From assembly GCA_002011125.2 (NCBI GenBank), contig MTMF02000009.1, forward strand, positions 1,576,989 to 1,640,988: a DNA stretch of 64,000 nt, given 5' to 3'. Below the pieces are notes generated by a model, which worked only from the letters and a program-made list of their open reading frames with translations, had not been told where the DNA came from and did not search any database. The DNA comes from Candidatus Hydrothermarchaeum profundi (lineage in GTDB: Archaea > Hydrothermarchaeota > Hydrothermarchaeia > Hydrothermarchaeales > Hydrothermarchaeaceae). Positions within the stretch are counted from its first letter, which is position 1. The number at the start of each line of letters is the position of its first letter. Below are positions 54,889 to 64,000 of this stretch, one piece after another. The translations under genes and the position numbers were made by a program.

Positions 54889-56394
54889 TTGTTAAGACTT
54901 ACTCCTATGCGGATTGCAATCCTAGTTTTTATAATGACCGTAGCAACCGCTTATGCTTATAGTCCCCACGAAGACCCATCAAAACATCCTGGAGCTTACT
55001 GTATAAACTGCCACAAGAGATTTATCGTAGATAACCCTACCGTGGTAGAGATGTTTCCATGTAATAAACAGCCATGTCATAGTTTAGGTGAGGAGGAAAG
55101 GGCCGCTATCCATCTAAAAGAATACATGTGCGAGGACTGCCATGCAGCAATGTCAAAAGGCTTCGACATCCACAACATCCACAGAGGAAAAGTCAACTGC
55201 AAGATATGCCACCTCAGCCCCAGAGGATGGAACTCATCCATAGCAACAATACCAGAGCCAACAAAAAAAATAGAATCAGAAGGCTACACCATCTACATAC
55301 CCGGAGACACCAAATGCCCATACTGCCACAAAACAGCAGAAAAACCAAAAAAACTACACCAAGTACACCAGCCAGTAATCAACACATCCTGCAAGACATG
55401 CCACGGAAGTCTACATAAAGGGGATATCTGCATTAATTGCCATGTGAAATATTCCATCAAAAAGAATTCGGGCTGCATAACTGCATGTCATAGTTTAGGT
55501 GAGGAGGAAAGGGCCGCTATCCATCTAAAAGAATACATGTGCGAGGACTGCCATGCAGCAATGTCAAAAGGCTTCGACATCCACAACATCCACAGAGGAA
55601 AAGTCAACTGCAAGATATGCCACCTCAGCCCCAGAGGATGGAACTCATCCATAGCAACAATACCAGAGCCAACAAAAAAAATAGAATCAGAAGGCTACAC
55701 CATCTACATACCCGGAGACACCAAATGCCCATACTGCCACAAAACAGCAGAAAAACCAAAAAAACTACACCAAGTACACCAGCCAGTAATCAACACATCC
55801 TGCAAGACATGCCACGGAAAAATGAAGCCCTCTATTCTAAAACTATGGGGAATAGAAGCTAAAAAAATTAAGAAAGAGGGTTTATTAGAATCATTAAATA
55901 AAAAAATCTCTAGCATTTTCCAAGCAAAAGTAGATATGAGCTGTAATTTATGCCATGAAGAACTAGTATCAAGTTTCTATACAAGCCCTGTTACTAAAAA
56001 AATCTCTAAAGTACATATGTGGGCTAGCCAAGCAGACATCTTTTTCGGGCCTAACGGAGAACTGAAATATGAAATGGAGTTTACAATTAATAATGAGAGT
56101 ACTGCCTGCCTATTATGTCACAAGATAGAAACAGTTAACGTTTATACAGGGAGCCATAAGATATACTGGAGAAAATGTACTAATGAAAGCTGTCATGGAG
56201 ATATAGCCTCAAATGGTACACGAATCTTCGTGGATGCAGGTAGCTTTAACTTGCCTGCATCAGCTAGAAATAGTCACGGATTATGGATTCAAAAAATAGA
56301 AAAAAAAGGATGGACTCAGGGATTTAGAGAAATCTGCGGTTGTCATCAGATACATCCTACCTACTCAAGAAGCTTAATAACCTCTGTTTTATAA
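54889..56394 (+). CDS. Secreted multiheme cytochrome c (12 CxxCH plus 3-4 atypical motifs)
   Basis: Signal peptide; motifs counted in the translation; internal duplication. Confidence 0.9.
   Translation: MLRLTPMRIAILVFIMTVATAYAYSPHEDPSKHPGAYCINCHKRFIVDNPTVVEMFPCNKQPCHSLGEEERAAIHLKEYMCEDCHAAMSKGFDIHNIHRGKVNCKICHLSPRGWNSSIATIPEPTKKIESEGYTIYIPGDTKCPYCHKTAEKPKKLHQVHQPVINTSCKTCHGSLHKGDICINCHVKYSIKKNSGCITACHSLGEEERAAIHLKEYMCEDCHAAMSKGFDIHNIHRGKVNCKICHLSPRGWNSSIATIPEPTKKIESEGYTIYIPGDTKCPYCHKTAEKPKKLHQVHQPVINTSCKTCHGKMKPSILKLWGIEAKKIKKEGLLESLNKKISSIFQAKVDMSCNLCHEELVSSFYTSPVTKKISKVHMWASQADIFFGPNGELKYEMEFTINNESTACLLCHKIETVNVYTGSHKIYWRKCTNESCHGDIASNGTRIFVDAGSFNLPASARNSHGLWIQKIEKKGWTQGFREICGCHQIHPTYSRSLITSVL
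55073..55819 (+). repeat. Exact 336-bp intragenic direct repeat (55073-55408 and 55484-55819)
   Basis: Copies identical by eye, offset 411 bp (in frame). Confidence 0.93.
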
Positions 56395-58100
56395 GTATCA
56401 AGCATATTTTTGATCTCTATCTCGTTTAATTTTCCTTGTGAACTTTCAGTTTCAAAGAATCTTTTTGGAATCCTAATCGCATCTAAATTAAAGCCTTCTC
56501 TTGTCTTAAACTTATATTTTATCTTGAAAATTTCCTTACCTATACCTAAAAATTCCTCTACCTCCTTCTGGATTCCTAAAGAGTTAAGAGCTTTTTCTAT
56601 TCGCTCTGGGGTATAAACCTCCCTTGCGAATAAGCATATCACGAGGGAATTAGCAAAACACCGCCAATAGTCTTCTCTCAATAAATTACTTACAATTTCG
56701 GTCTCTCTTAATTTACCTTTCAATAATTTTTGATCCAAGCTGTATCCCGCATTATCCAGGTGCCCATGTCTCGGACCGGCTATGTGCCCTATAAGATTCG
56801 CCCTGCCCGTATGATAACCAGCCATACCGAGCCCCCCTAACGATAAAGCATATTCCTCTCCACCAAACTTTTGTGCAGCCGCCGTTTCACCTTTAGCTAA
56901 GGCCTTATAAAAATCATTGGGCATCTTAACAATATACTGGACGGCCTTTTTATAGGCCTCCACATTACCAAAAGCCAGATCTATGCCAAGAGTATCATGT
57001 TTAGATATGAGATGGTTTTCATAGGCCTCCGTTGCCCAAGAGAGAGTCGTCCCAGTAGACATTGCATCTAGCCCCAAATGATCCACAGACTCTATTAAAC
57101 TTAGAACTTGCTCTGCCAGAGGTATCCCTAACAAGCTACCTAGCGCGAATATAGGCTCATAATCATAAGGGATCCTTTTGGTCTCGAATTCGAATCCCCT
57201 GGCAAAAGGAATCTGCATTGTAGCTATATGAATACATCCAACCGGACAAGCAGTACATGCAATGTGCTTCGCCATATAATTCTCAGCAAGATGCTCCCCT
57301 GAGATATACTCGGCATACTCAAAAGTAGAAGATTTAAGATTCCTAGTCGGCAAGCCCCTAATCTGATTCAAGGGATTGACATTAATAGCAGTACCATAAT
57401 CATGGTATTTGTTAAGACTATCAGTATTCACAATAACATCATACAACTCTTTATATGCCTTCAAATATCCTTTTTTATCCTCCATAGGTAGGTCTTTTGA
57501 ACCAGAAATCGCAATGGCTTTAAGATTCTTGCTCCCAAATACCGCTCCTAAGCCAAGCCTACCAAAATGTCTGTATGTGTCAACATTTACATTTGCATAT
57601 CTTACTAAGTTCTCTCCTGCGGGACCGATCCTTATTATACTCCTTCTACCTGGAGCGGGTTCTACATCCCTTAAAATCTTTCCCACAGTATACGCTGAAG
57701 ATATACCCCATATCGATCTCGCATCCTTAAAGTAAACTTTTTCATTTTGGATGGATAGATAAACCGGGCGATCACTTTTTCCTTTTATAACAATAGCCAT
57801 GTTTCCAGAGAAACGCATAGCGGCACCTAGCCTACCACCAGCATAGCTCTCGCCTAATTCGTTTGTCAAAGGAGATTTAAAAAGAGCAACCGCCTTAGTA
57901 CATGTAGGAAATGCCCCAGTTAAAGGTCCGGTAGATAGGATTATTGGATTCTCAGGGCTGAGAGGGTCTACGCCTTTGGGACAGTTCTCCATAAGGAGGC
58001 TTATACCTACCCCTACCCCCCCAATATATTTCTCAAAAAGGTCTTTTCTTTCCTCCTGATACACTTCTCTATTTCCAAGGTTAATGTAAAGTACATTCAT
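56361..58100 (-). CDS. aor: Aldehyde:ferredoxin oxidoreductase family (W/Mo-pterin)
   Basis: KSPLT, IGPAGEN.V, GAVFGSKNLKAI, CTACPVGC, YE, GLDAMS. Confidence 0.9.
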   Translation of the reverse strand: MNVLYINLGNREVYQEERKDLFEKYIGGVGVGISLLMENCPKGVDPLSPENPIILSTGPLTGAFPTCTKAVALFKSPLTNELGESYAGGRLGAAMRFSGNMAIVIKGKSDRPVYLSIQNEKVYFKDARSIWGISSAYTVGKILRDVEPAPGRRSIIRIGPAGENLVRYANVNVDTYRHFGRLGLGAVFGSKNLKAIAISGSKDLPMEDKKGYLKAYKELYDVIVNTDSLNKYHDYGTAINVNPLNQIRGLPTRNLKSSTFEYAEYISGEHLAENYMAKHIACTACPVGCIHIATMQIPFARGFEFETKRIPYDYEPIFALGSLLGIPLAEQVLSLIESVDHLGLDAMSTGTTLSWATEAYENHLISKHDTLGIDLAFGNVEAYKKAVQYIVKMPNDFYKALAKGETAAAQKFGGEEYALSLGGLGMAGYHTGRANLIGHIAGPRHGHLDNAGYSLDQKLLKGKLRETEIVSNLLREDYWRCFANSLVICLFAREVYTPERIEKALNSLGIQKEVEEFLGIGKEIFKIKYKFKTREGFNLDAIRIPKRFFETESSQGKLNEIEIKNMLDTYKTEVIKLLE

Positions 58101-58501
58101 AGTACTTCAAACCTCTCAAGTTCAAGAATATCATGGGGGCAAAATTTAGCACAAGCTCCGCATTGAATACATATTAGCGGCTGATTTAGTTCTTCATCAA
58201 ACTCGATGGCCCCGAGAAGGCAAGCTTCAACGCATTTTTTACAACCAGTACACTTTTCTTTTATAAAATAAAGGCTATCTCTAACTTCAATAGCATACTC
58301 AGGACATGAAGCTACACATGGAGGGTCTTCACACATCCTACATGCAACAATTGCAAATTCACTTTCTATTCCGCCTGTAGTTTTAACATGTATAGCGCTC
58401 CTATCCGTAGAAATAACCCCATATCTCGTTCTAGCACATGCAAAAACGCAACTCATACAGCCGATACACCGCTCTGGATTCTTTACTTTTATCCTCTTCA
58501 T
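58097..58501 (-). CDS. 4Fe-4S polyferredoxin partner of AOR
   Basis: Four Cys clusters. Confidence 0.9.
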   Translation of the reverse strand: MKRIKVKNPERCIGCMSCVFACARTRYGVISTDRSAIHVKTTGGIESEFAIVACRMCEDPPCVASCPEYAIEVRDSLYFIKEKCTGCKKCVEACLLGAIEFDEELNQPLICIQCGACAKFCPHDILELERFEVL

Positions 58502-58600: not shown

Positions 58601-59233
58601 ATGAGATTTAGTTCAATTCTTATAGTGATCCTCGTTATAACTGGAGTTTACCTACTTCCATCCGTGCTGGCAAAGTTTGCAGGAACTCACACCGTAGAAG
58701 TTAATCAAACAGGAGGCGTACAACAACTTAGATGCATCGAGTGCCATGAATACGCATTTGATGAATTAAACTCTACAGTTGCACAATCGGTGCTTAAAAA
58801 ACACAAAAATGCTGCAGGAAATTCTACTTACACTTTAAGCTGGCTCCAACGTAGCTTGAACAATCAAACCGACGAAGGAATTTGCATTCTATGCCATGGA
58901 GTAATAAAAGCTTACGAGAATTTGAGTCATACAGGAGTAGTAATGAGAGTATGCACGGATATAAATTGCCATGGAAACAATGAAACTACAAACAACACAA
59001 TGTACAGCGCGGGAAATGTTGGACCAGTTCTTGGAAATACTAACGCCCATGAAGAGTGGTTTGATGATATGGGTTCTTACTTGACTAGACATCAAAATGA
59101 GTCTGGCGCTAACTTAACTCGTGATTATTACACTTGCTTAGGTTGTCATACTTATACTGAAGTGGACATCAGTATTAGCAGAGCTAACTATGATCATTCA
59201 GACCCCTCATACAGCAAAAATAGGTATATTTAA
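58601..59233 (+). CDS. Secreted tetraheme cytochrome c (candidate filament subunit)
   Basis: Signal ending LPSVLA-KFAGTH; CIECH, CILCH, CTDINCH, CLGCH; 9 NxS/T sequons; no TM anchor. Confidence 0.85.
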   Translation: MRFSSILIVILVITGVYLLPSVLAKFAGTHTVEVNQTGGVQQLRCIECHEYAFDELNSTVAQSVLKKHKNAAGNSTYTLSWLQRSLNNQTDEGICILCHGVIKAYENLSHTGVVMRVCTDINCHGNNETTNNTMYSAGNVGPVLGNTNAHEEWFDDMGSYLTRHQNESGANLTRDYYTCLGCHTYTEVDISISRANYDHSDPSYSKNRYI

Positions 59234-59337
59234 TCAAACTTTGACGGAAAGTAAGAATTTTTCTAGGATTTTTAAATGAAATTTACTTTTATTTACAAAT
59301 AATAAGAATAAATAAACATCGACACTAAGTCTCTTAT

Positions 59338-59353
59338 GGAAAAGTTTAAATAT
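59338..59353 (+). promoter_or_regulatory. BRE/TATA promoter candidate for the second tetraheme gene
   Basis: ggaaaagTTTAAATA; GGAGGTGA precedes the TTG start at 59428. Confidence 0.5.
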
Positions 59354-59427
59354 TATTTTGATTATTGTTAATCTAACACCGTCCCTCATCTGGGAGATAC
59401 TATGAGGAAGGAGACGGAGGTGAAATA

Positions 59428-60204
59428 TTGAATACGAAATTGTTGATGCTGATGGGAACAATCGTGTTGGGTATATATGTGCTCCCGAGCGTAACAGCAA
59501 AATTTGCAGGGTCCCACACTATGGAGGCTAATACTACGGGAGGCGTTACTGAAGTGCAGTGCGGTAATTGTCATCAGTACATTCAAGACGAGTTGAACTT
59601 ATCGGATGGTAGTCTATCAGATGACGTAGTTACTGCCCATATAACTGCTCTTCAAGATACTAATTATGCCAATGCCAGTAACCAAAGTGCCCCGCTAAAG
59701 ATGGATGCTATTACAGATGCTGATATTACTACTGTGTGTCATCTCTGCCACAAAGTTCAATCAGGAGTTAGTGGAGGACACACCCAAGTAACCATTAGAG
59801 CCTGTACAGATTCAGCGTGCCATGGCTATAACTCAAGCGCAAGCCCATTATATTCGAGTAAACTGAATATAACTGAGAAGCTAGGTTCACCCTATGATGC
59901 CCACAATGTTTGGTATAATGCTATGACAAGCGCATCACCGTATAAAGCAGATGATGTAGATGGATGGGCTGGAGACTTAGTAAACCAAACTGCTGTGAGC
60001 GGTGGGAACTATACGATAGCATTTTATACCTGCTTAGGATGCCATACTCACGTGGGAATCGAATTCTCGCCAATAAACAGGTGGAACGCCTATAGTATCA
60101 ATGTATCTTTCAATAATCAGGGAGCTGCTACTGTAGAGTTTATAAATATGACTAGCACAAATACGACTTACGCCTCTAAGTCCCACGGCTCCGTCTGGAG
60201 ATAA
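59428..60204 (+). CDS. Secreted tetraheme cytochrome c (candidate major filament subunit)
   Basis: Signal ending LPSVTA-KFAGSH; CGNCH, CHLCH, CTDSACH, CLGCH; 11 NxS/T sequons. Confidence 0.87.
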   Translation: MNTKLLMLMGTIVLGIYVLPSVTAKFAGSHTMEANTTGGVTEVQCGNCHQYIQDELNLSDGSLSDDVVTAHITALQDTNYANASNQSAPLKMDAITDADITTVCHLCHKVQSGVSGGHTQVTIRACTDSACHGYNSSASPLYSSKLNITEKLGSPYDAHNVWYNAMTSASPYKADDVDGWAGDLVNQTAVSGGNYTIAFYTCLGCHTHVGIEFSPINRWNAYSINVSFNNQGAATVEFINMTSTNTTYASKSHGSVWR

Positions 60205-60227
60205 GATTCCTAATAACTCAACAATCT

Positions 60228-60270
60228 CCCGGGTGAATATGAACACCCGGGTAAAACTTTTTTATTTTTT
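60228..60270 (+). terminator. Hairpin plus T-tract terminator candidate
   Basis: cccgggtg-N8-cacccggg followed by T-runs. Confidence 0.65.
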
Positions 60271-60304
60271 AAAAGCTAGGTTAATCTATAATTACTGAAA
60301 CAAT

Positions 60305-61015
60305 ATGCGGCTGACTAATATGTATAGGGAGTATACAAAGTACTTAGCGTTTGTAATCGCTATTACAGCGGCCTTCGAGTTGGTATACGCATATAATCCC
60401 TACGAAAACCCTAAGACTCACCTAGGAGCAATTTGTATTGACTGCCATAAGCGGTTTAAAGATGTTATCGATAATCCAACTGTATCTTCTTTCAGACCAT
60501 GTTATAAAGATGACTGTCATTTATCTGCAGATAAATGGGGAGGCAAGTCGAAGAGGGAAAGCCTACATCTCTCACGAGAAATCTGCAAAAATTGCCATAC
60601 TGAGATTCACACCACCCATAGAGATCGAGTAAATTGCAGAGTATGCCACATGAGTCCTAGGGGATGGAACTCCTCAAAAGTAAGGATACCTGTATCCAAG
60701 GAACAGAGGGTTTTTGAGGAGATGACCATTACTATACCTGGTAGCGCAGAATGTTCCTATTGCCACTTTAAAATTCCTAGTGCAAAAAACATACACGAGG
60801 TACATTCTCCAGAACTAAAGAATAACCAAACATGCTTAAAATGCCATGGGAAAGTAATCGAGAAGCGGCCTGACCTTATAGCTAAGATGAGTGGTGAAAA
60901 GATTGAAGAAAAGAAAAGAGGTTTAATGAACTCTCGGCCAATAGTTGAATTTATTAGGTTTTATAACCTAATAACGATGCAGCTGATAGAGCTATTTACA
61001 TCAAAGGTGAGATAA
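60305..61015 (+). CDS. Hexaheme cytochrome c, paralog of the repeated domain of 54889-56394
   Basis: 5 CxxCH plus CYKDDCH; shares C..CHKRF..DNPTV and CH.SPRGWNSS. Confidence 0.87.
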   Translation: MRLTNMYREYTKYLAFVIAITAAFELVYAYNPYENPKTHLGAICIDCHKRFKDVIDNPTVSSFRPCYKDDCHLSADKWGGKSKRESLHLSREICKNCHTEIHTTHRDRVNCRVCHMSPRGWNSSKVRIPVSKEQRVFEEMTITIPGSAECSYCHFKIPSAKNIHEVHSPELKNNQTCLKCHGKVIEKRPDLIAKMSGEKIEEKKRGLMNSRPIVEFIRFYNLITMQLIELFTSKVR

Positions 61016-61852
61016 GTGGTTTTTCAACATCAATATCAATATCAGTATCAATATCAAACACAACTAGGATTTCAATATCAGTCTTTTGACCAGCTTATCC
61101 ACGAGCTTCCATTAACGGTTATTGTCCTTTCAATTTTTATAGCTTTGAGCCCTTTTTTTATATATTTACTTCATAGAAGAGGCGTTATTCCATCCGTCAT
61201 GAAACCTATTTTTAAGGCAGGATTACTTGTAAAAACAAAGTTAAGAGATAGAAGCATAAAATCTAGGATAACCGATGAATATACTAGTCTCAGAGATAAG
61301 AGAATAGAGTTCGGTTCGGTCGTATCCTTGGGTTTTTACTTGGCAAACGTCGTATTATTTTTATTGGTAGCTACAAAGATGATATTTTTTGGATTAGTGG
61401 TTTCTCAATCTATGCTTCCTACTCTAGCGCCTGCCGACTTAGTACTTTGTGAAGCTATCTCGATAAATAGTATAGAAAAAGGCGATATAGTTGTATTCTC
61501 GCCTCCAAACGGTGGCCCTATGACAATTCACAGGGTAGTAAGAGTGGGCCCGGATGGAATTAGAACCCGCGGGGATAACGTGGGGACAATGGACCCATGG
61601 ACGCTGAAGAAAGAGGATATCGTAGGTAAAGCGGTCATGGTTAATGGTAAACCCGTTATTCTAAAGAACTTTGGAACATATTTTATGCCTCGAAGAACTT
61701 ATATTCCAGGATCTGATCCCGCGTATGATTTTGTTAGAGGCATGATAAACGCCGTACATAGGTTTGGTCCGATATTTATTATATCTCTTGCTCTCTTAGC
61801 CCTAGTGTTCAGTTTTGGGGGAAAAAAGAAAAGGTATCTAACATATTCTTAA
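61016..61852 (+). CDS. Signal peptidase I (S26, Ser-His archaeal/SipW type)
   Basis: VVSQSMLPTL, GDIVVF, IHRVV, TRGDN...DP. Confidence 0.85.
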   Translation: MVFQHQYQYQYQYQTQLGFQYQSFDQLIHELPLTVIVLSIFIALSPFFIYLLHRRGVIPSVMKPIFKAGLLVKTKLRDRSIKSRITDEYTSLRDKRIEFGSVVSLGFYLANVVLFLLVATKMIFFGLVVSQSMLPTLAPADLVLCEAISINSIEKGDIVVFSPPNGGPMTIHRVVRVGPDGIRTRGDNVGTMDPWTLKKEDIVGKAVMVNGKPVILKNFGTYFMPRRTYIPGSDPAYDFVRGMINAVHRFGPIFIISLALLALVFSFGGKKKRYLTYS

Positions 61853-61882
61853 AAAATAATAGAAAATTAAAAGGCACTAAAT

Positions 61883-62851
61883 ATGAAGCCACAAGAACCG
61901 CCAAAAATTGGGGAGCTGCCTCCAGAGGAACATGCTATTGGAATTTACGCTGGATTAGCTCTGGGAGGGCTTATTCTTGGAACTGGAGCCTCAGTATTAT
62001 TTAGAGACATACTCATGACGTTTACTACAGAGGGTTTGACTTTTAATCTTATCATGATATTCAGGATCTTCCTATTCTTTTTTTCAGCTTACGCGTCTCT
62101 AGCATGCTTTTTCGGGCTATTCAGAATGATAGGGTTACAACGTATGTTAGTGCGGGAAGTTGATAAGGAATTTAAAGACTTTGTGATGTATGCTAGACCT
62201 CTGATAGAAGAGATAATTAAGCAGAGAATCGTGGGTGAAACAATCGCGGAAAAACTTGATAATCTCATACGTTCAACGACAACGGTAGAGGATAAAAGAC
62301 GGTTTGAATATGGCAGACCACTAGACATTAGAGTACCTAAGTGGGGAGAGTTTCTATTGTTCGTCGCACTTTTGGCTAACATAAGTATTGGGCTTTTTAT
62401 TTTTTTAGAGAGGCATCCTTGGGAGCTCGTACCTTATAGTATCATCCTGTTGGCGATTGGCTGGTGGGTAGTGATAGCAAAATACTTCGGTCTTTTATAT
62501 GAGATACGTTCTCAGTATTTTCCAGCATTTTTTATACTTCTCATGCCAACATTATCTATACTCCTTAGAGCTTATCTAGAACTTTATCAGACCCTTTACT
62601 TAGTTTTTATATTTTTATTCCTCTATGTCATTTCAATGTACTTTTACTTCAAATACCTCGCAACTGGAGAGATTCCGCTATTTATAATAAAGAGCTTCTC
62701 GAGAGTAGGCATAGATTTAGAGAAGAGCAAGGAACTACCCTTTCACTTAAAAAAGTATATGCCCCCAGAGAAACCTGAAAAGAAAGAAAAGTTTATTACC
62801 ATAAAAATGAGTGAGAAACTAAAAACGATTTTAAAGAAGTTTAAAAGATAA
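61883..62851 (+). CDS. Polytopic membrane protein of unknown function
   Basis: About 6 TM segments with a soluble helical insert. Confidence 0.7.
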   Translation: MKPQEPPKIGELPPEEHAIGIYAGLALGGLILGTGASVLFRDILMTFTTEGLTFNLIMIFRIFLFFFSAYASLACFFGLFRMIGLQRMLVREVDKEFKDFVMYARPLIEEIIKQRIVGETIAEKLDNLIRSTTTVEDKRRFEYGRPLDIRVPKWGEFLLFVALLANISIGLFIFLERHPWELVPYSIILLAIGWWVVIAKYFGLLYEIRSQYFPAFFILLMPTLSILLRAYLELYQTLYLVFIFLFLYVISMYFYFKYLATGEIPLFIIKSFSRVGIDLEKSKELPFHLKKYMPPEKPEKKEKFITIKMSEKLKTILKKFKR

Positions 62852-62856
62852 AAAAA

Positions 62857-63789
62857 ATGACCGCTAAAATATTTTTAAAACTCTTAAATCAATATACTGA
62901 AGCTATTAGAAACTACTGTGAAGCATTAGGTTGGGACTACGAGAAATTTAAGACTAGTATTAGTGATGAAGGAATCAGTCACCCCGAGTTATATTTGGAG
63001 GATCCAAATGAGGGGATACTTGACAGGATAAGCCAGTTCTTGGAGCCCAGCAATCAGAGCTCAGTTTTAATTATCTGGGATGATGTGGGGATGGGTAAGA
63101 GTTCGATTAGAGATTTTGTTTCGAAATCCTTAGATGAAGTAGGGAGCTATCATACGGTCGTTATAACTGACCCCAGACTTACTCCATTACAACTTCTTCG
63201 TGCAATCGCGGACCAGCTAGATGCTAAGGCGGATGTTTGGAACGATCGGGGGAAAGTTAAAGAAGCCCTTTGGAAGAGGATGTTGGAAGTTACTGGGCTT
63301 GGGATAAACATAGTTATATGGGTTGATGAAGCAGAAAAGGTGGATAAAAATATAATATCCGAACTAAGAGCTTTAAGCGATATTAAAAGAGAAGACGGCT
63401 CTAAGCTTTGTAAGATTATTCTCTCAGGGACCCCTCGGTTAAAAGAGAAACTAGAGGATTACATCGAGAGCCGCTCAAGCGACGTACTCGCCTTTGACGA
63501 TAGGGCAAGTTTAAATACTCTTCGGCTTAATAAGTGGAAACCAGGAGATATCTATAACTATTGGAATCTTCTAGCTGAATATTGTGGAGGTATTAATCCC
63601 TTCAGTAAAGAAGCCGCTGAAACCGTATGGGAAATAAGTGATGGTAAACCGAGGACAATTGCTCAGATTACTAAGCTTGTTATAAACCAAAAGGCAATGG
63701 ATTATTATAAGAGAGGTGGAGCACCAGAGATAACTCCTGAGTTTATATTGGATACCATCAGAAAACACTTAGGTGAGGGAAGTGCGTAA
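62857..63789 (+). CDS. ExeA/GspA/MshM-like AAA+ ATPase
   Basis: DDVGMGKS, IWVDEAE, IILSGTPRL, S.G.PR.I. Confidence 0.75.
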   Translation: MTAKIFLKLLNQYTEAIRNYCEALGWDYEKFKTSISDEGISHPELYLEDPNEGILDRISQFLEPSNQSSVLIIWDDVGMGKSSIRDFVSKSLDEVGSYHTVVITDPRLTPLQLLRAIADQLDAKADVWNDRGKVKEALWKRMLEVTGLGINIVIWVDEAEKVDKNIISELRALSDIKREDGSKLCKIILSGTPRLKEKLEDYIESRSSDVLAFDDRASLNTLRLNKWKPGDIYNYWNLLAEYCGGINPFSKEAAETVWEISDGKPRTIAQITKLVINQKAMDYYKRGGAPEITPEFILDTIRKHLGEGSA

Positions 63790-64000
63790 AAAGTTGGATC
63801 TGCGAGAGAAACTTAGGAAGTTGTCAGAGGAGAAGAGGAGAGAGACAGCATTATTAAGGGCTAAAAAGATCGTAGAAATCCCTCAAAAACCTAAACTACT
63901 TTCAATATCTGAGCTGAGTTTTCCTCAAGGGTCACCTCTTAAGCGCTCCGATATAATTACCTCGAAGACAAGATTAGAGGAGACGCTAGTGCATGAGTCG
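63782..64000 (+). CDS. Hypothetical protein (partial, runs off the window)
   Basis: GTG at 63782 overlapping the ATPase end; frame open to 64000. Confidence 0.55.
   Translation, partial: MRKKLDLREKLRKLSEEKRRETALLRAKKIVEIPQKPKLLSISELSFPQGSPLKRSDIITSKTRLEETLVHES

Follow-up and report, generated by a model that had tools for sequence, protein, structure and literature searches.

Candidatus Hydrothermarchaeum profundi is an archaeon whose genome carries, near the end of a 64,000-nucleotide (nt) stretch of contig MTMF02000009.1 (G000:C9:1576989-1640988; hereafter, the window), a set of cytochrome genes next to a signal peptidase and a membrane protein. Two paralogous tetrahaem cytochromes, which we call ECN1 and ECN2, are followed on the same strand by a hexahaem cytochrome, by a type I signal peptidase of family S26 and by a protein of 322 amino acids (aa) with about six hydrophobic segments, which we call memb322. 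Our best explanation, to which we give a probability of roughly 0.65 from comparative sequence analysis, is that this is an extracellular cytochrome locus of the family of AvECN, the filament subunit of Archaeoglobus veneficus, with a dedicated S26 peptidase and memb322, and that cleavage of the cytochrome signal would be linked to polymerisation. Within that explanation, we infer the cleavage by this particular S26, the position of the cut, filament formation by ECN1 and ECN2, donation of a His ligand by residue 30, the role of memb322 and any role of a neighbouring ATPase. A first-pass annotation of the same DNA, made from the letters alone, had proposed a nanowire locus here, and all the open reading frames (ORFs) that it listed are present as it described them. 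Published work is cited below by PubMed Central number, in each case for the accessible portions of the paper; G, L and P numbers are our handles for genomes, loci and proteins, G000 being the window's own genome.

ECN1 and ECN2 share 35% identity and each contain four haem-binding motifs, in the order pointed out earlier and with CxxxxCH third: CIECH, CILCH, CTDINCH and CLGCH in ECN1, and CGNCH, CHLCH, CTDSACH and CLGCH in ECN2. The reference structure, 8E5G, is the A. veneficus filament (F2KMU8; Baquero et al. 2023, as reported by citing papers). Against its chain 8e5g_A, ECN1 alone gives a weak match (phmmer, E 0.055), and ECN2 as a single query gives none. A large protein search with ECN2 returned 39 relatives, the few with source names coming from metagenome-assembled genomes (MAGs) of Candidatus Hydrothermarchaeales, and 24 of them were aligned with ECN1 and ECN2 into a family alignment of 26 rows (left out were the window's own entry P0001, P0004, P0008, P0014, P0019, P0021, P0024, P0030, P0031 and P0034-P0039). 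The profile built from this alignment matches 8e5g_A at E 7e-12 over two stretches, the N-terminal 100 residues and the last haem region.

The known wire protein can be placed directly beside ours. Genome G117, found as a cytochrome match within a 401-genome sample of another phylum, encodes a 262-aa ORF (L065:10306-11094, minus strand) that is identical to 8e5g_A over residues 1-262. We aligned this AvECN ORF with ECN1, ECN2 and relatives of Archaeoglobi, Methanosarcinales and Hydrothermarchaeales type (22 rows). All four haem motifs (C45/C48/H49, C104/C107/H108, C126/C131/H132 and C202/C205/H206) are invariant in all 22 rows, as are P20, G28, H30, H71, H118 and H159. The four motif His and H30, H71, H118 and H159 together give eight His for four haems, which fits the expected bis-His ligation. 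Identity between ECN2 and AvECN is about 21% in this alignment. The profile match and the jointly conserved motifs bear out the suggestion that the two tetrahaems are relatives of nanowire subunits; on these comparisons we regard their membership in the AvECN family as close to certain, which adds ECN1 and ECN2, as judged by sequence, to a family that is already known. For the wire cytochrome of A. veneficus, homologs are reported from diverse species of both domains (PMC12954529), and a Methanoperedens homolog of AvECN has been named (PMC13748539).

Both proteins are predicted to be secreted. Each has a single hydrophobic segment, within residues 1-28, and nothing hydrophobic beyond the N-terminus, which agrees with the earlier remark that neither has a membrane anchor. 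The high sequon numbers claimed at first pass hold too: the 9 N-x-S/T sequons of ECN1 and the 11 of ECN2 lie far above the means of composition-preserving shuffles (3.2 and 4.0, respectively), and 0 of 2000 shuffles reach either count. ECN2 differs from ECN1 in length, with a beta-rich C-terminal extension that ends in …GSVWR, and relatives fall into the same two types, a long one that follows the profile to about position 240 and a short one that follows it to about 200-211. Long and short types occur together in 8 of the 13 own-phylum genomes with matches at E ~1e-47 or better, the remaining five being 62-89% complete, and the short type, which in several lineages ends in a basic …(K/R)RY, is found again in other loci. 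Such a conserved duo fits two distinct roles, and this recurrence indirectly supports the idea of a major and a minor subunit: ECN2, of the long type, is the probable main filament subunit, and ECN1, of the short type, is a candidate for a conserved second subunit. Larger cytochromes with 7-10 haem motifs (L061, L064, L060, L063, L113 and L119) carry the family N-terminal region in tandem with 4-haem genes, their N-terminal motif being sometimes degenerate; a broader range of multihaem proteins may use the family signal.

The signal sequence is unusual. The junction reads …LPSV(L/T)AKFAG(T/S)HT… in ECN1 and ECN2, and the shared form noted at first pass, LPSVxA↓KFAG(S/T)HT (↓, predicted cut), is present in both. 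Ordinary Sec signals are not conserved in sequence. In this family, upstream of the predicted cut V-x-A↓K, P20 is invariant and L19 nearly invariant; the -3/-1 residues are V-x-A in ECN1 and ECN2 and T-x-S in AvECN. We searched the first 80 residues of the ORFs of all fetched loci for the strict pattern P-x(3-5)-[FYIL]-[ASLV]-G-x-H and found it in 66 of the 86 ORFs that match the family hidden Markov model (HMM), 5- and 6-haem paralogs included, versus 1 of 2159 other ORFs. Of the 20 family ORFs without it, most have near-variants such as FQGSH or FTGQH or are truncated. Plain signals are found within the same locus, in the hexahaem cytochrome (…VYA↓YNP) and in a 501-aa cytochrome further upstream (…TAYA↓YSP). 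The cytochrome signal thus appears unusually conserved for a Sec signal. Two other signal classes were considered and rejected: a class III (prepilin) signal, as the hydrophobic stretch is not preceded by a (K/R)G-type cut site, and a lipobox, as no Cys lies close to the cut site.

Just after the predicted cut stands H30, which is invariant with AvECN included. Three of the four haems of AvECN take their distal His from another subunit (PMC12203936), and known wires have '0, 1, or 3' such intersubunit His according to a preprint. With most distal His of AvECN coming from another subunit, donation by an N-terminal His fits the architecture of the family, and H30 could ligate a haem of another subunit; its conservation is consistent with donation to the haem of a neighbour.

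The peptidase itself is a recognisable S26 enzyme of the Ser-His type, as had been read from its sequence at first pass. It scores 38.8 bits against PF10502 (cut-off 22.9) and 57 against TIGR02228 (archaeal signal peptidase I, NCBIfam; cut-off 51.85), and its Ser and His boxes are intact. Its class is the archaeal or endoplasmic reticulum one (SipW/Sec11-like). Across the 21 S26 rows that are linked to cytochromes, S132, M133, P135, H172, R173, G186, D187 and D193 are invariant in every row, which gives the catalytic boxes S-M-x-P, H-R (not Lys) and G-D…D. Additions seen in the linked copies are one transmembrane (TM) segment at the N-terminus and one at the C-terminus, a basic linker and a family-specific G-x-Y-F motif. 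The window's own genome contains two further S26-like genes, one of which is a typical 151-aa housekeeping copy (115 bits), and five other genomes examined each have the linked type together with one to four others. A maximum-likelihood tree was computed from 32 sequences, namely the 21 linked copies and 11 other S26 genes of G000, G117, G051, G077, G001 and G032, after removal of five rows that duplicated alignment rows (the root is arbitrary). A branch with support 93/91 separates all 21 linked copies from the rest and is present in 92% of 200 bootstrap trees. Tree and copy numbers support the view that the window S26 is a distinct extra paralog beside the housekeeping copy. As a separate observation, in the S26 proteins of the window (61016-61080), L008, L009, L011 and L012 a Gln-Tyr repeat, QYQYQYQ…, opens the sequence ahead of the first membrane segment, and it reaches about 30 residues in L012.

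The protein memb322, described at first pass as polytopic and indeed with about six hydrophobic segments, belongs to an orphan family. It has no Pfam family at E up to 0.1 and no NCBIfam match, and its source annotations read 'hypothetical protein' except for two entries called 'MFS family permease'; the named entries include Ferp_0665 of Ferroglobus placidus and entries of Geoglobus acetivorans. An exhaustive profile search of 1.84 billion cluster representatives returned 84 matches, 58 of them at E up to 1e-30, so the family is a narrow one. The predicted model (predicted local distance difference test, pLDDT, 71.7) is all-helical with six membrane helices and a long helix that continues from TM2; the loop that follows TM2 and the tail are both basic, and we take them to lie in the cytoplasm. 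The only matches of a VIA-align wide search were generic helical hairpins and bundles, whose Z scores of at most 9.9 stay under the level that is meaningful for helical proteins, and the ESM Atlas gave no match at 0.9 or above. Complex prediction of S26 with memb322 scored 0.01 and speaks neither way. The gene is nearly always single-copy, and cytochromes reach up to seven matches per genome. Ten longer forms of memb322 were checked, and none is a Rosetta-stone fusion with S26; three (P0113, P0115 and P0121) have N-terminal tetratricopeptide repeats, and one, the 1483-aa P0149, has a beta-propeller and an immunoglobulin-like region with a long C-terminal extension. Signal peptidases can have accessory subunits. 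As the invariant residues of memb322 do not resemble a catalytic set, and by analogy to such accessory subunits and to the helper TafG discussed below, we regard it as a scaffold or docking partner. The memb322 matches of G025, G090, G179, G155, G336, G149 and G206 contain 1-3 in-frame TGA codons.

The association of these genes extends well beyond the window. We compared the window proteins, by tblastn and blastp, with 21 cytochrome loci from a scan of species-representative genomes, labelled Hydrothermarchaeota/Hydrothermarchaeales, 'Methanobacteriota' or Methanosarcinales MAGs. S26 adjoins cytochrome relatives in 17 of the 21; in the other four (L010, L016, L018 and L025), the contig ends within the cytochrome gene or at most 250 nt after it. 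The membrane protein is found in 15 of the 21, one case being a weak 31-aa match at a contig end, and is absent from L007, L008 and the same four contig-end loci. A homolog of the hexahaem gene is present in 9 of the 21. The first-pass annotation had proposed a survey for S26, membrane protein and ATPase next to such cytochromes elsewhere, and the survey made here sustains the first two and gives weaker support to the third, which appears in 4 of the 21. For the other phylum, 20 regions of 20 kb around cytochrome matches were fetched from 16 genomes of the 401-genome sample and scanned with HMMs. Six of the 16 genomes (G214, G051, G077, G032, G095 and G069) have S26 and memb322 inside the 20-kb region around a cytochrome match, and one (G036) has memb322 alone at the edge of the region. 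A 272-aa paralog with 5 haems and a hexahaem-like gene come after the AvECN gene in G117, and the single memb322 of that genome is convergent with a cytochrome-type S26 at C1:1645500-1647000.

Distribution across whole genomes follows the same pattern. Profiles detect the cytochrome in 60 of the 401 other-phylum genomes, memb322 in 63 and both in 58 (cytochrome only in G316 and G371; memb322 only in G079, G130, G256, G359 and G374, some of these matches lying on very short contigs). Among 38 own-phylum genomes, the cytochrome is found in 27, memb322 in 22 and both in 21, with six cytochrome-only genomes (62, 62, 93, 97, 89 and 88% complete) and one memb322-only genome, G405. Taken together, 79 of the 85 memb322-positive genomes also carry the cytochrome family; the lists were compared by hand. 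Among the genomes in which memb322 has no adjacent S26, all five that were checked have exactly one full-length cytochrome-type S26 elsewhere (219-251 bits), and their other S26 copies score 75 bits or less. These comparisons support synteny or co-occurrence of S26 and memb322 with AvECN-type cytochromes across three archaeal lineages, and comparative genomics makes a good case for a dedicated processing module for these cytochromes. Gene order, joint occurrence and the conserved -3/-1 residues suggest that the S26 paralog cleaves the signals of the neighbouring cytochromes.

Several observations weigh against this explanation. Nine of the 16 other-phylum genomes (G117, G232, G143, G149, G224, G384, G269, G188 and G401) have neither S26 nor memb322 in the fetched 20 kb. 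These include the genome of the known wire, G117, in which the AvECN gene has neither S26 nor memb322 within 10 kb, and no AvECN-family cytochrome was detected in the 20-kb region fetched around the S26/memb322 pair. S26 is inside just 11 of 20 regions centred on memb322 (it is absent from seven, one region is cut by a contig end and one lacks a gene call). The two samples together hold eight cytochrome-only and six memb322-only genomes, and, as the genomes are related, the co-occurrence counts are a pattern and not independent evidence or a statistic. The invariant positions of memb322 (F97, P106, W194, W195, L219, P222 and Y253) include none typical of catalysis, and its model has no Foldseek match in the PDB at E up to 0.001. 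The AlphaFold2 model of ECN2, computed from the 26-row alignment without haems, is poor (pLDDT 51). Conservation near the cut site need not all come from recognition by a peptidase; a structural role of the mature N-terminus could account for part of it. The ATPase occurs in 4 of the 21 loci, one of these being a 41-aa end fragment, and the 160-aa ORF that follows it likewise in 4 of the 21.

This last point bears on the genes downstream of memb322, for which the first-pass annotation had proposed an ExeA-like, secretion-type ATPase and, more generally, an assembly machinery. The AAA_22 domain (PF13401, 55.8 bits against a cut-off of 27) and intact Walker A and B motifs stand, but the score against TIGR03015, the PEP-CTERM-associated ATPase, is 51.4 bits against a cut-off of 324.5, short of the equivalog score, and the Pfam scan returned only AAA_22, ATPase_2, nSTAND6 and NB-ARC, with no GspE/VirB11-type family of type II or type IV secretion systems. 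The assembly proposal survives for S26 and memb322, and it loses ground for the ATPase and the last ORF. That the two are an unrelated regulatory or mobile module, which follows memb322 by chance in one clade, is close to an even chance, if slightly below it. Their sparse distribution is what one would expect of such a module; the ATPase is far below the PEP-CTERM cut-off, the 160-aa ORF has no Pfam or NCBIfam family, and the window ATPase as a single-protein query returned nothing in five other cytochrome-bearing genomes (G117, G051, G077, G001 and G032), a search that had no positive control and shows little. On the other side, both genes come directly after memb322, with order and strand conserved, in the window, L006, L011 and L012, and L007 has the pair next to an AvECN-family cytochrome. 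In L101, a locus of a different phylum, S26 and memb322 have a weak AAA_22-like gene between them, and PADLOC, run on the ATPase, the 160-aa ORF and memb322, found no match to a defence system. We treat the ATPase as a clade-specific accessory of uncertain relevance.

A second alternative accepts the family assignment and questions the filament. The tetrahaems might be non-polymerising surface or secreted electron carriers or terminal reductases, either monomeric or oligomeric, which S26 and memb322 would only mature or release. Only one member of the family has a solved filament (8e5g), ECN2 is distant from it in sequence, and radiation within the family has produced paralogs with 2 to 10 haems, often many in one genome, which can hardly all form filaments; the identity of the filament of the Methanoperedens homolog stayed unresolved in the accessible text of PMC13748539. 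Against this, the invariance of the four haem motifs, the four extra His and the N-terminal motif extends to AvECN. A monomer of AvECN design would leave haems under-ligated, because three of the four distal His are intersubunit (PMC12203936), and dense sequons without an anchor fit an exposed polymer. We consider this alternative unlikely.

Less probable still, at a small fraction of the weight that we give to a dedicated module, is that S26 and memb322 are a general envelope or secretion component, serving for example S-layer proteins or all multihaem cytochromes, and are adjacent to the tetrahaems through clustering of cytochrome genes: the pair is unlinked to these cytochrome genes in G117 and several other genomes, the cytochrome family is undetected in six genomes with memb322, and hexahaem genes with generic signals are also frequent neighbours, but each genome checked keeps a separate housekeeping-type S26, memb322 occurs in just 63 of 401 and 22 of 38 genomes, nearly all with the cytochrome family, and L19 and P20 upstream of the predicted cut are conserved only in this family.

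Under the explanation that we prefer, an AvECN-family locus with a dedicated peptidase and memb322, the following sequence of events can be proposed. The ECN pre-proteins would be exported by Sec, and haem would be supplied to them by a cytochrome c maturation (Ccm) system that appears to be encoded just downstream, on the other strand. The precursors would stay tethered by the conserved signal, …LPSxx(A/S)↓xF(A/S)G(S/Q)H…, until the dedicated S26 paralog, together with the orphan memb322, cuts it. The cut would free an N-terminus with the invariant His30, available for the haem of another subunit, and processing at the membrane would in this way license polymerisation. The ATPase and the 160-aa ORF would be lineage-specific cytoplasmic accessories. 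A bolder version, which we put forward tentatively and hold to be considerably less probable, is that S26 and memb322 constitute a hitherto unrecognised biogenesis machine for AvECN-family nanowires, in which the machine would recognise the family-specific signal, whose removal would switch on and feed filament growth, ECN1 would be a second subunit (base, tip or adaptor) and the ATPase would couple the machine to the cytoplasm in one clade. Its scope would be the window's own phylum and the sampled other phylum, with the AvECN genome and MAGs labelled Methanosarcinales.

The surrounding genes are listed in the table that follows. The hexahaem cytochrome, placed by the first-pass annotation next on the same strand and with six motifs counted, probably relays electrons to the filament; its homolog also adjoins the AvECN gene in G117. 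The N-terminal part of the 501-aa cytochrome is paralogous to the hexahaem gene, and its C-terminal part has a weak likeness to the nanowire-subunit family; a profile match to this cytochrome stands at 4e-13, to positions 43-136. Its gene contains, at 55073-55783, a 100% identical direct repeat, in which a stretch of at least 300 nt recurs in frame at a distance of 411 nt. This amounts to an exact 111-aa repeat at residues 63 and 200 and accounts for the 15 haem motifs; a tandem duplication of very recent date or an artefact of the assembly would explain it. Between this gene and ECN1, a 579-aa minus-strand ORF resembles an aldehyde:ferredoxin oxidoreductase by eye, and a 134-aa minus-strand ORF in the same interval resembles a poly-ferredoxin or 4Fe-4S ferredoxin, also by eye. 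The last ORF of the window is 160 aa in full when read on past the window end (L004). Just beyond, five minus-strand ORFs (L004 1252-6370) are read as CcmF, E, C, B and A of cytochrome c maturation system I, names assigned from the length, order and sequence of the ORFs.

ECN2 had been credited at first pass with its own TATA box, a strong Shine-Dalgarno sequence and a terminator. By eye, an A/T-rich TTTAAATATT lies near 59345 and a Shine-Dalgarno sequence, GGAGGTGA, at 59416-59423, 4 nt upstream of the TTG start at 59428. A GC-rich hairpin of 8 bp follows the stop codon at 60228-60251 (-16.2 kcal/mol, z -3.29; none of 200 shuffles does as well), and directly after it comes the T-run TTTTTTATTTTTT. 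A generic scan for promoter and terminator consensus sequences flagged none of these sites, and its counts equal the shuffle expectation, so the signals are a reading by eye without statistical support from the scan.

Table 1. Genes and sequence signals at the ECN locus, in window coordinates
Feature	Position	Strand	Description
501-aa multihaem cytochrome	54889..56394	+	15 haem motifs
579-aa ORF and 134-aa ORF	within 56361-58501	-	read by eye
ECN1	58601..59233	+	210 aa, short AvECN-family member, 4 haem motifs, 9 sequons, ending …KNRYI
Putative ECN2 expression signals	59345..59423	+	A/T-rich TTTAAATATT and Shine-Dalgarno GGAGGTGA, read directly
ECN2	59428..60204	+	258 aa, long AvECN-family member, 4 haem motifs, 11 sequons
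Terminator-like hairpin, then T-run	60228..60270	+	8 bp, GC-rich; between ECN2 and hexahaem gene
Hexahaem c-type cytochrome	60305..61015	+	236 aa, 6 haem motifs
S26 type I signal peptidase paralog	61016..61852	+	278 aa, archaeal/endoplasmic reticulum Ser-His type
Orphan 6-TM membrane protein memb322	61883..62851	+	322 aa
AAA_22 P-loop ATPase	62857..63789	+	310 aa, Walker A GMGKS, Walker B VDEAE
160-aa ORF, start	63773..64000	+	overlaps ATPase stop, continues beyond window end

We found no link in the literature between AvECN-type cytochromes, this S26 paralog and this orphan membrane protein, the founding 2023 paper and its supplements being outside the coverage. A search for cytochrome nanowires together with signal peptidases returned only work on other filaments and the Methanoperedens paper, PMC13748539, in which a word look-up shows that 'signal peptidase' does not occur, and the accessible literature yielded no description of how archaeal cytochrome nanowires are secreted, processed or polymerised. 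The three-part set described here would offer concrete gene targets: cytochromes with a special signal, a dedicated Ser-His peptidase and a narrow orphan membrane family. The set occurs in the genome that encodes AvECN, in relatives named Ferroglobus placidus and Geoglobus acetivorans and in Methanosarcinales MAGs. It is a likely lead to how archaea build cytochrome nanowires, and it could explain why heterologous wire production may need more than the subunit gene. It would also extend the theme of a dedicated signal peptidase, seen with TasA, AbpX and Tafi pili, to redox filaments.

Comparison with these and other known systems makes the parallels specific. In the TasA/TapA system with SipW of Bacillus subtilis and in archaeal AbpX with its class I peptidase, filament genes lie beside a dedicated S26 peptidase of endoplasmic reticulum/archaeal type, by which their products are processed (PMC9245690, PMC12518558). 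Their subunits, however, are jelly-rolls joined by donor strands and not cytochromes, and the descriptions covered mention no partner like the 6-TM protein. In haloarchaeal Tafi pili, the peptidase TafD is proposed to work with a conserved helper, TafG (DUF5305), from the same filament locus (PMC12337348). With no Pfam match at all, memb322 has no match to DUF5305, and Tafi subunits are Tat or Sec pilins rather than haem proteins. PEP-CTERM/exosortase systems resemble the window in combining a conserved sorting signal, a dedicated membrane enzyme and a broadly similar AAA_22 ATPase (TIGR03015), but in the window the signal is N-terminal, the enzyme is S26 and not an exosortase, and the ATPase reaches 51 bits against the cut-off of 324.5.

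A cytochrome wire that depends on proteolysis is already known. OmcZ of Geobacter, and OmcZ2 of Methanoperedens, must be processed by a protease encoded nearby, OzpA, before the cytochrome polymerises (PMC13748539). OzpA is described as a serine protease that removes the C-terminal part of OmcZ (PMC13748539), whereas the window S26 would act on an N-terminal signal, and the cytochrome families are unrelated. The nearest relative remains the AvECN locus itself. It differs from the window in its third haem motif, which is CxxCH in AvECN and CxxxxCH in ECN1 and ECN2, and in its surroundings: the window has the long and short pair with S26 and memb322 adjoining, and in the AvECN genome the S26/memb322 pair is far from the AvECN gene. 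AvECN is nevertheless homologous to ECN1 and ECN2: the order of the four haem motifs is the same, the four other His are invariant, and the N-terminal LP…F-x-G-x-H and secretion without an anchor are shared. Its locus, like that of the window, places a neighbouring paralog (of 5 haems in the AvECN case) and a hexahaem gene beside the wire subunit.

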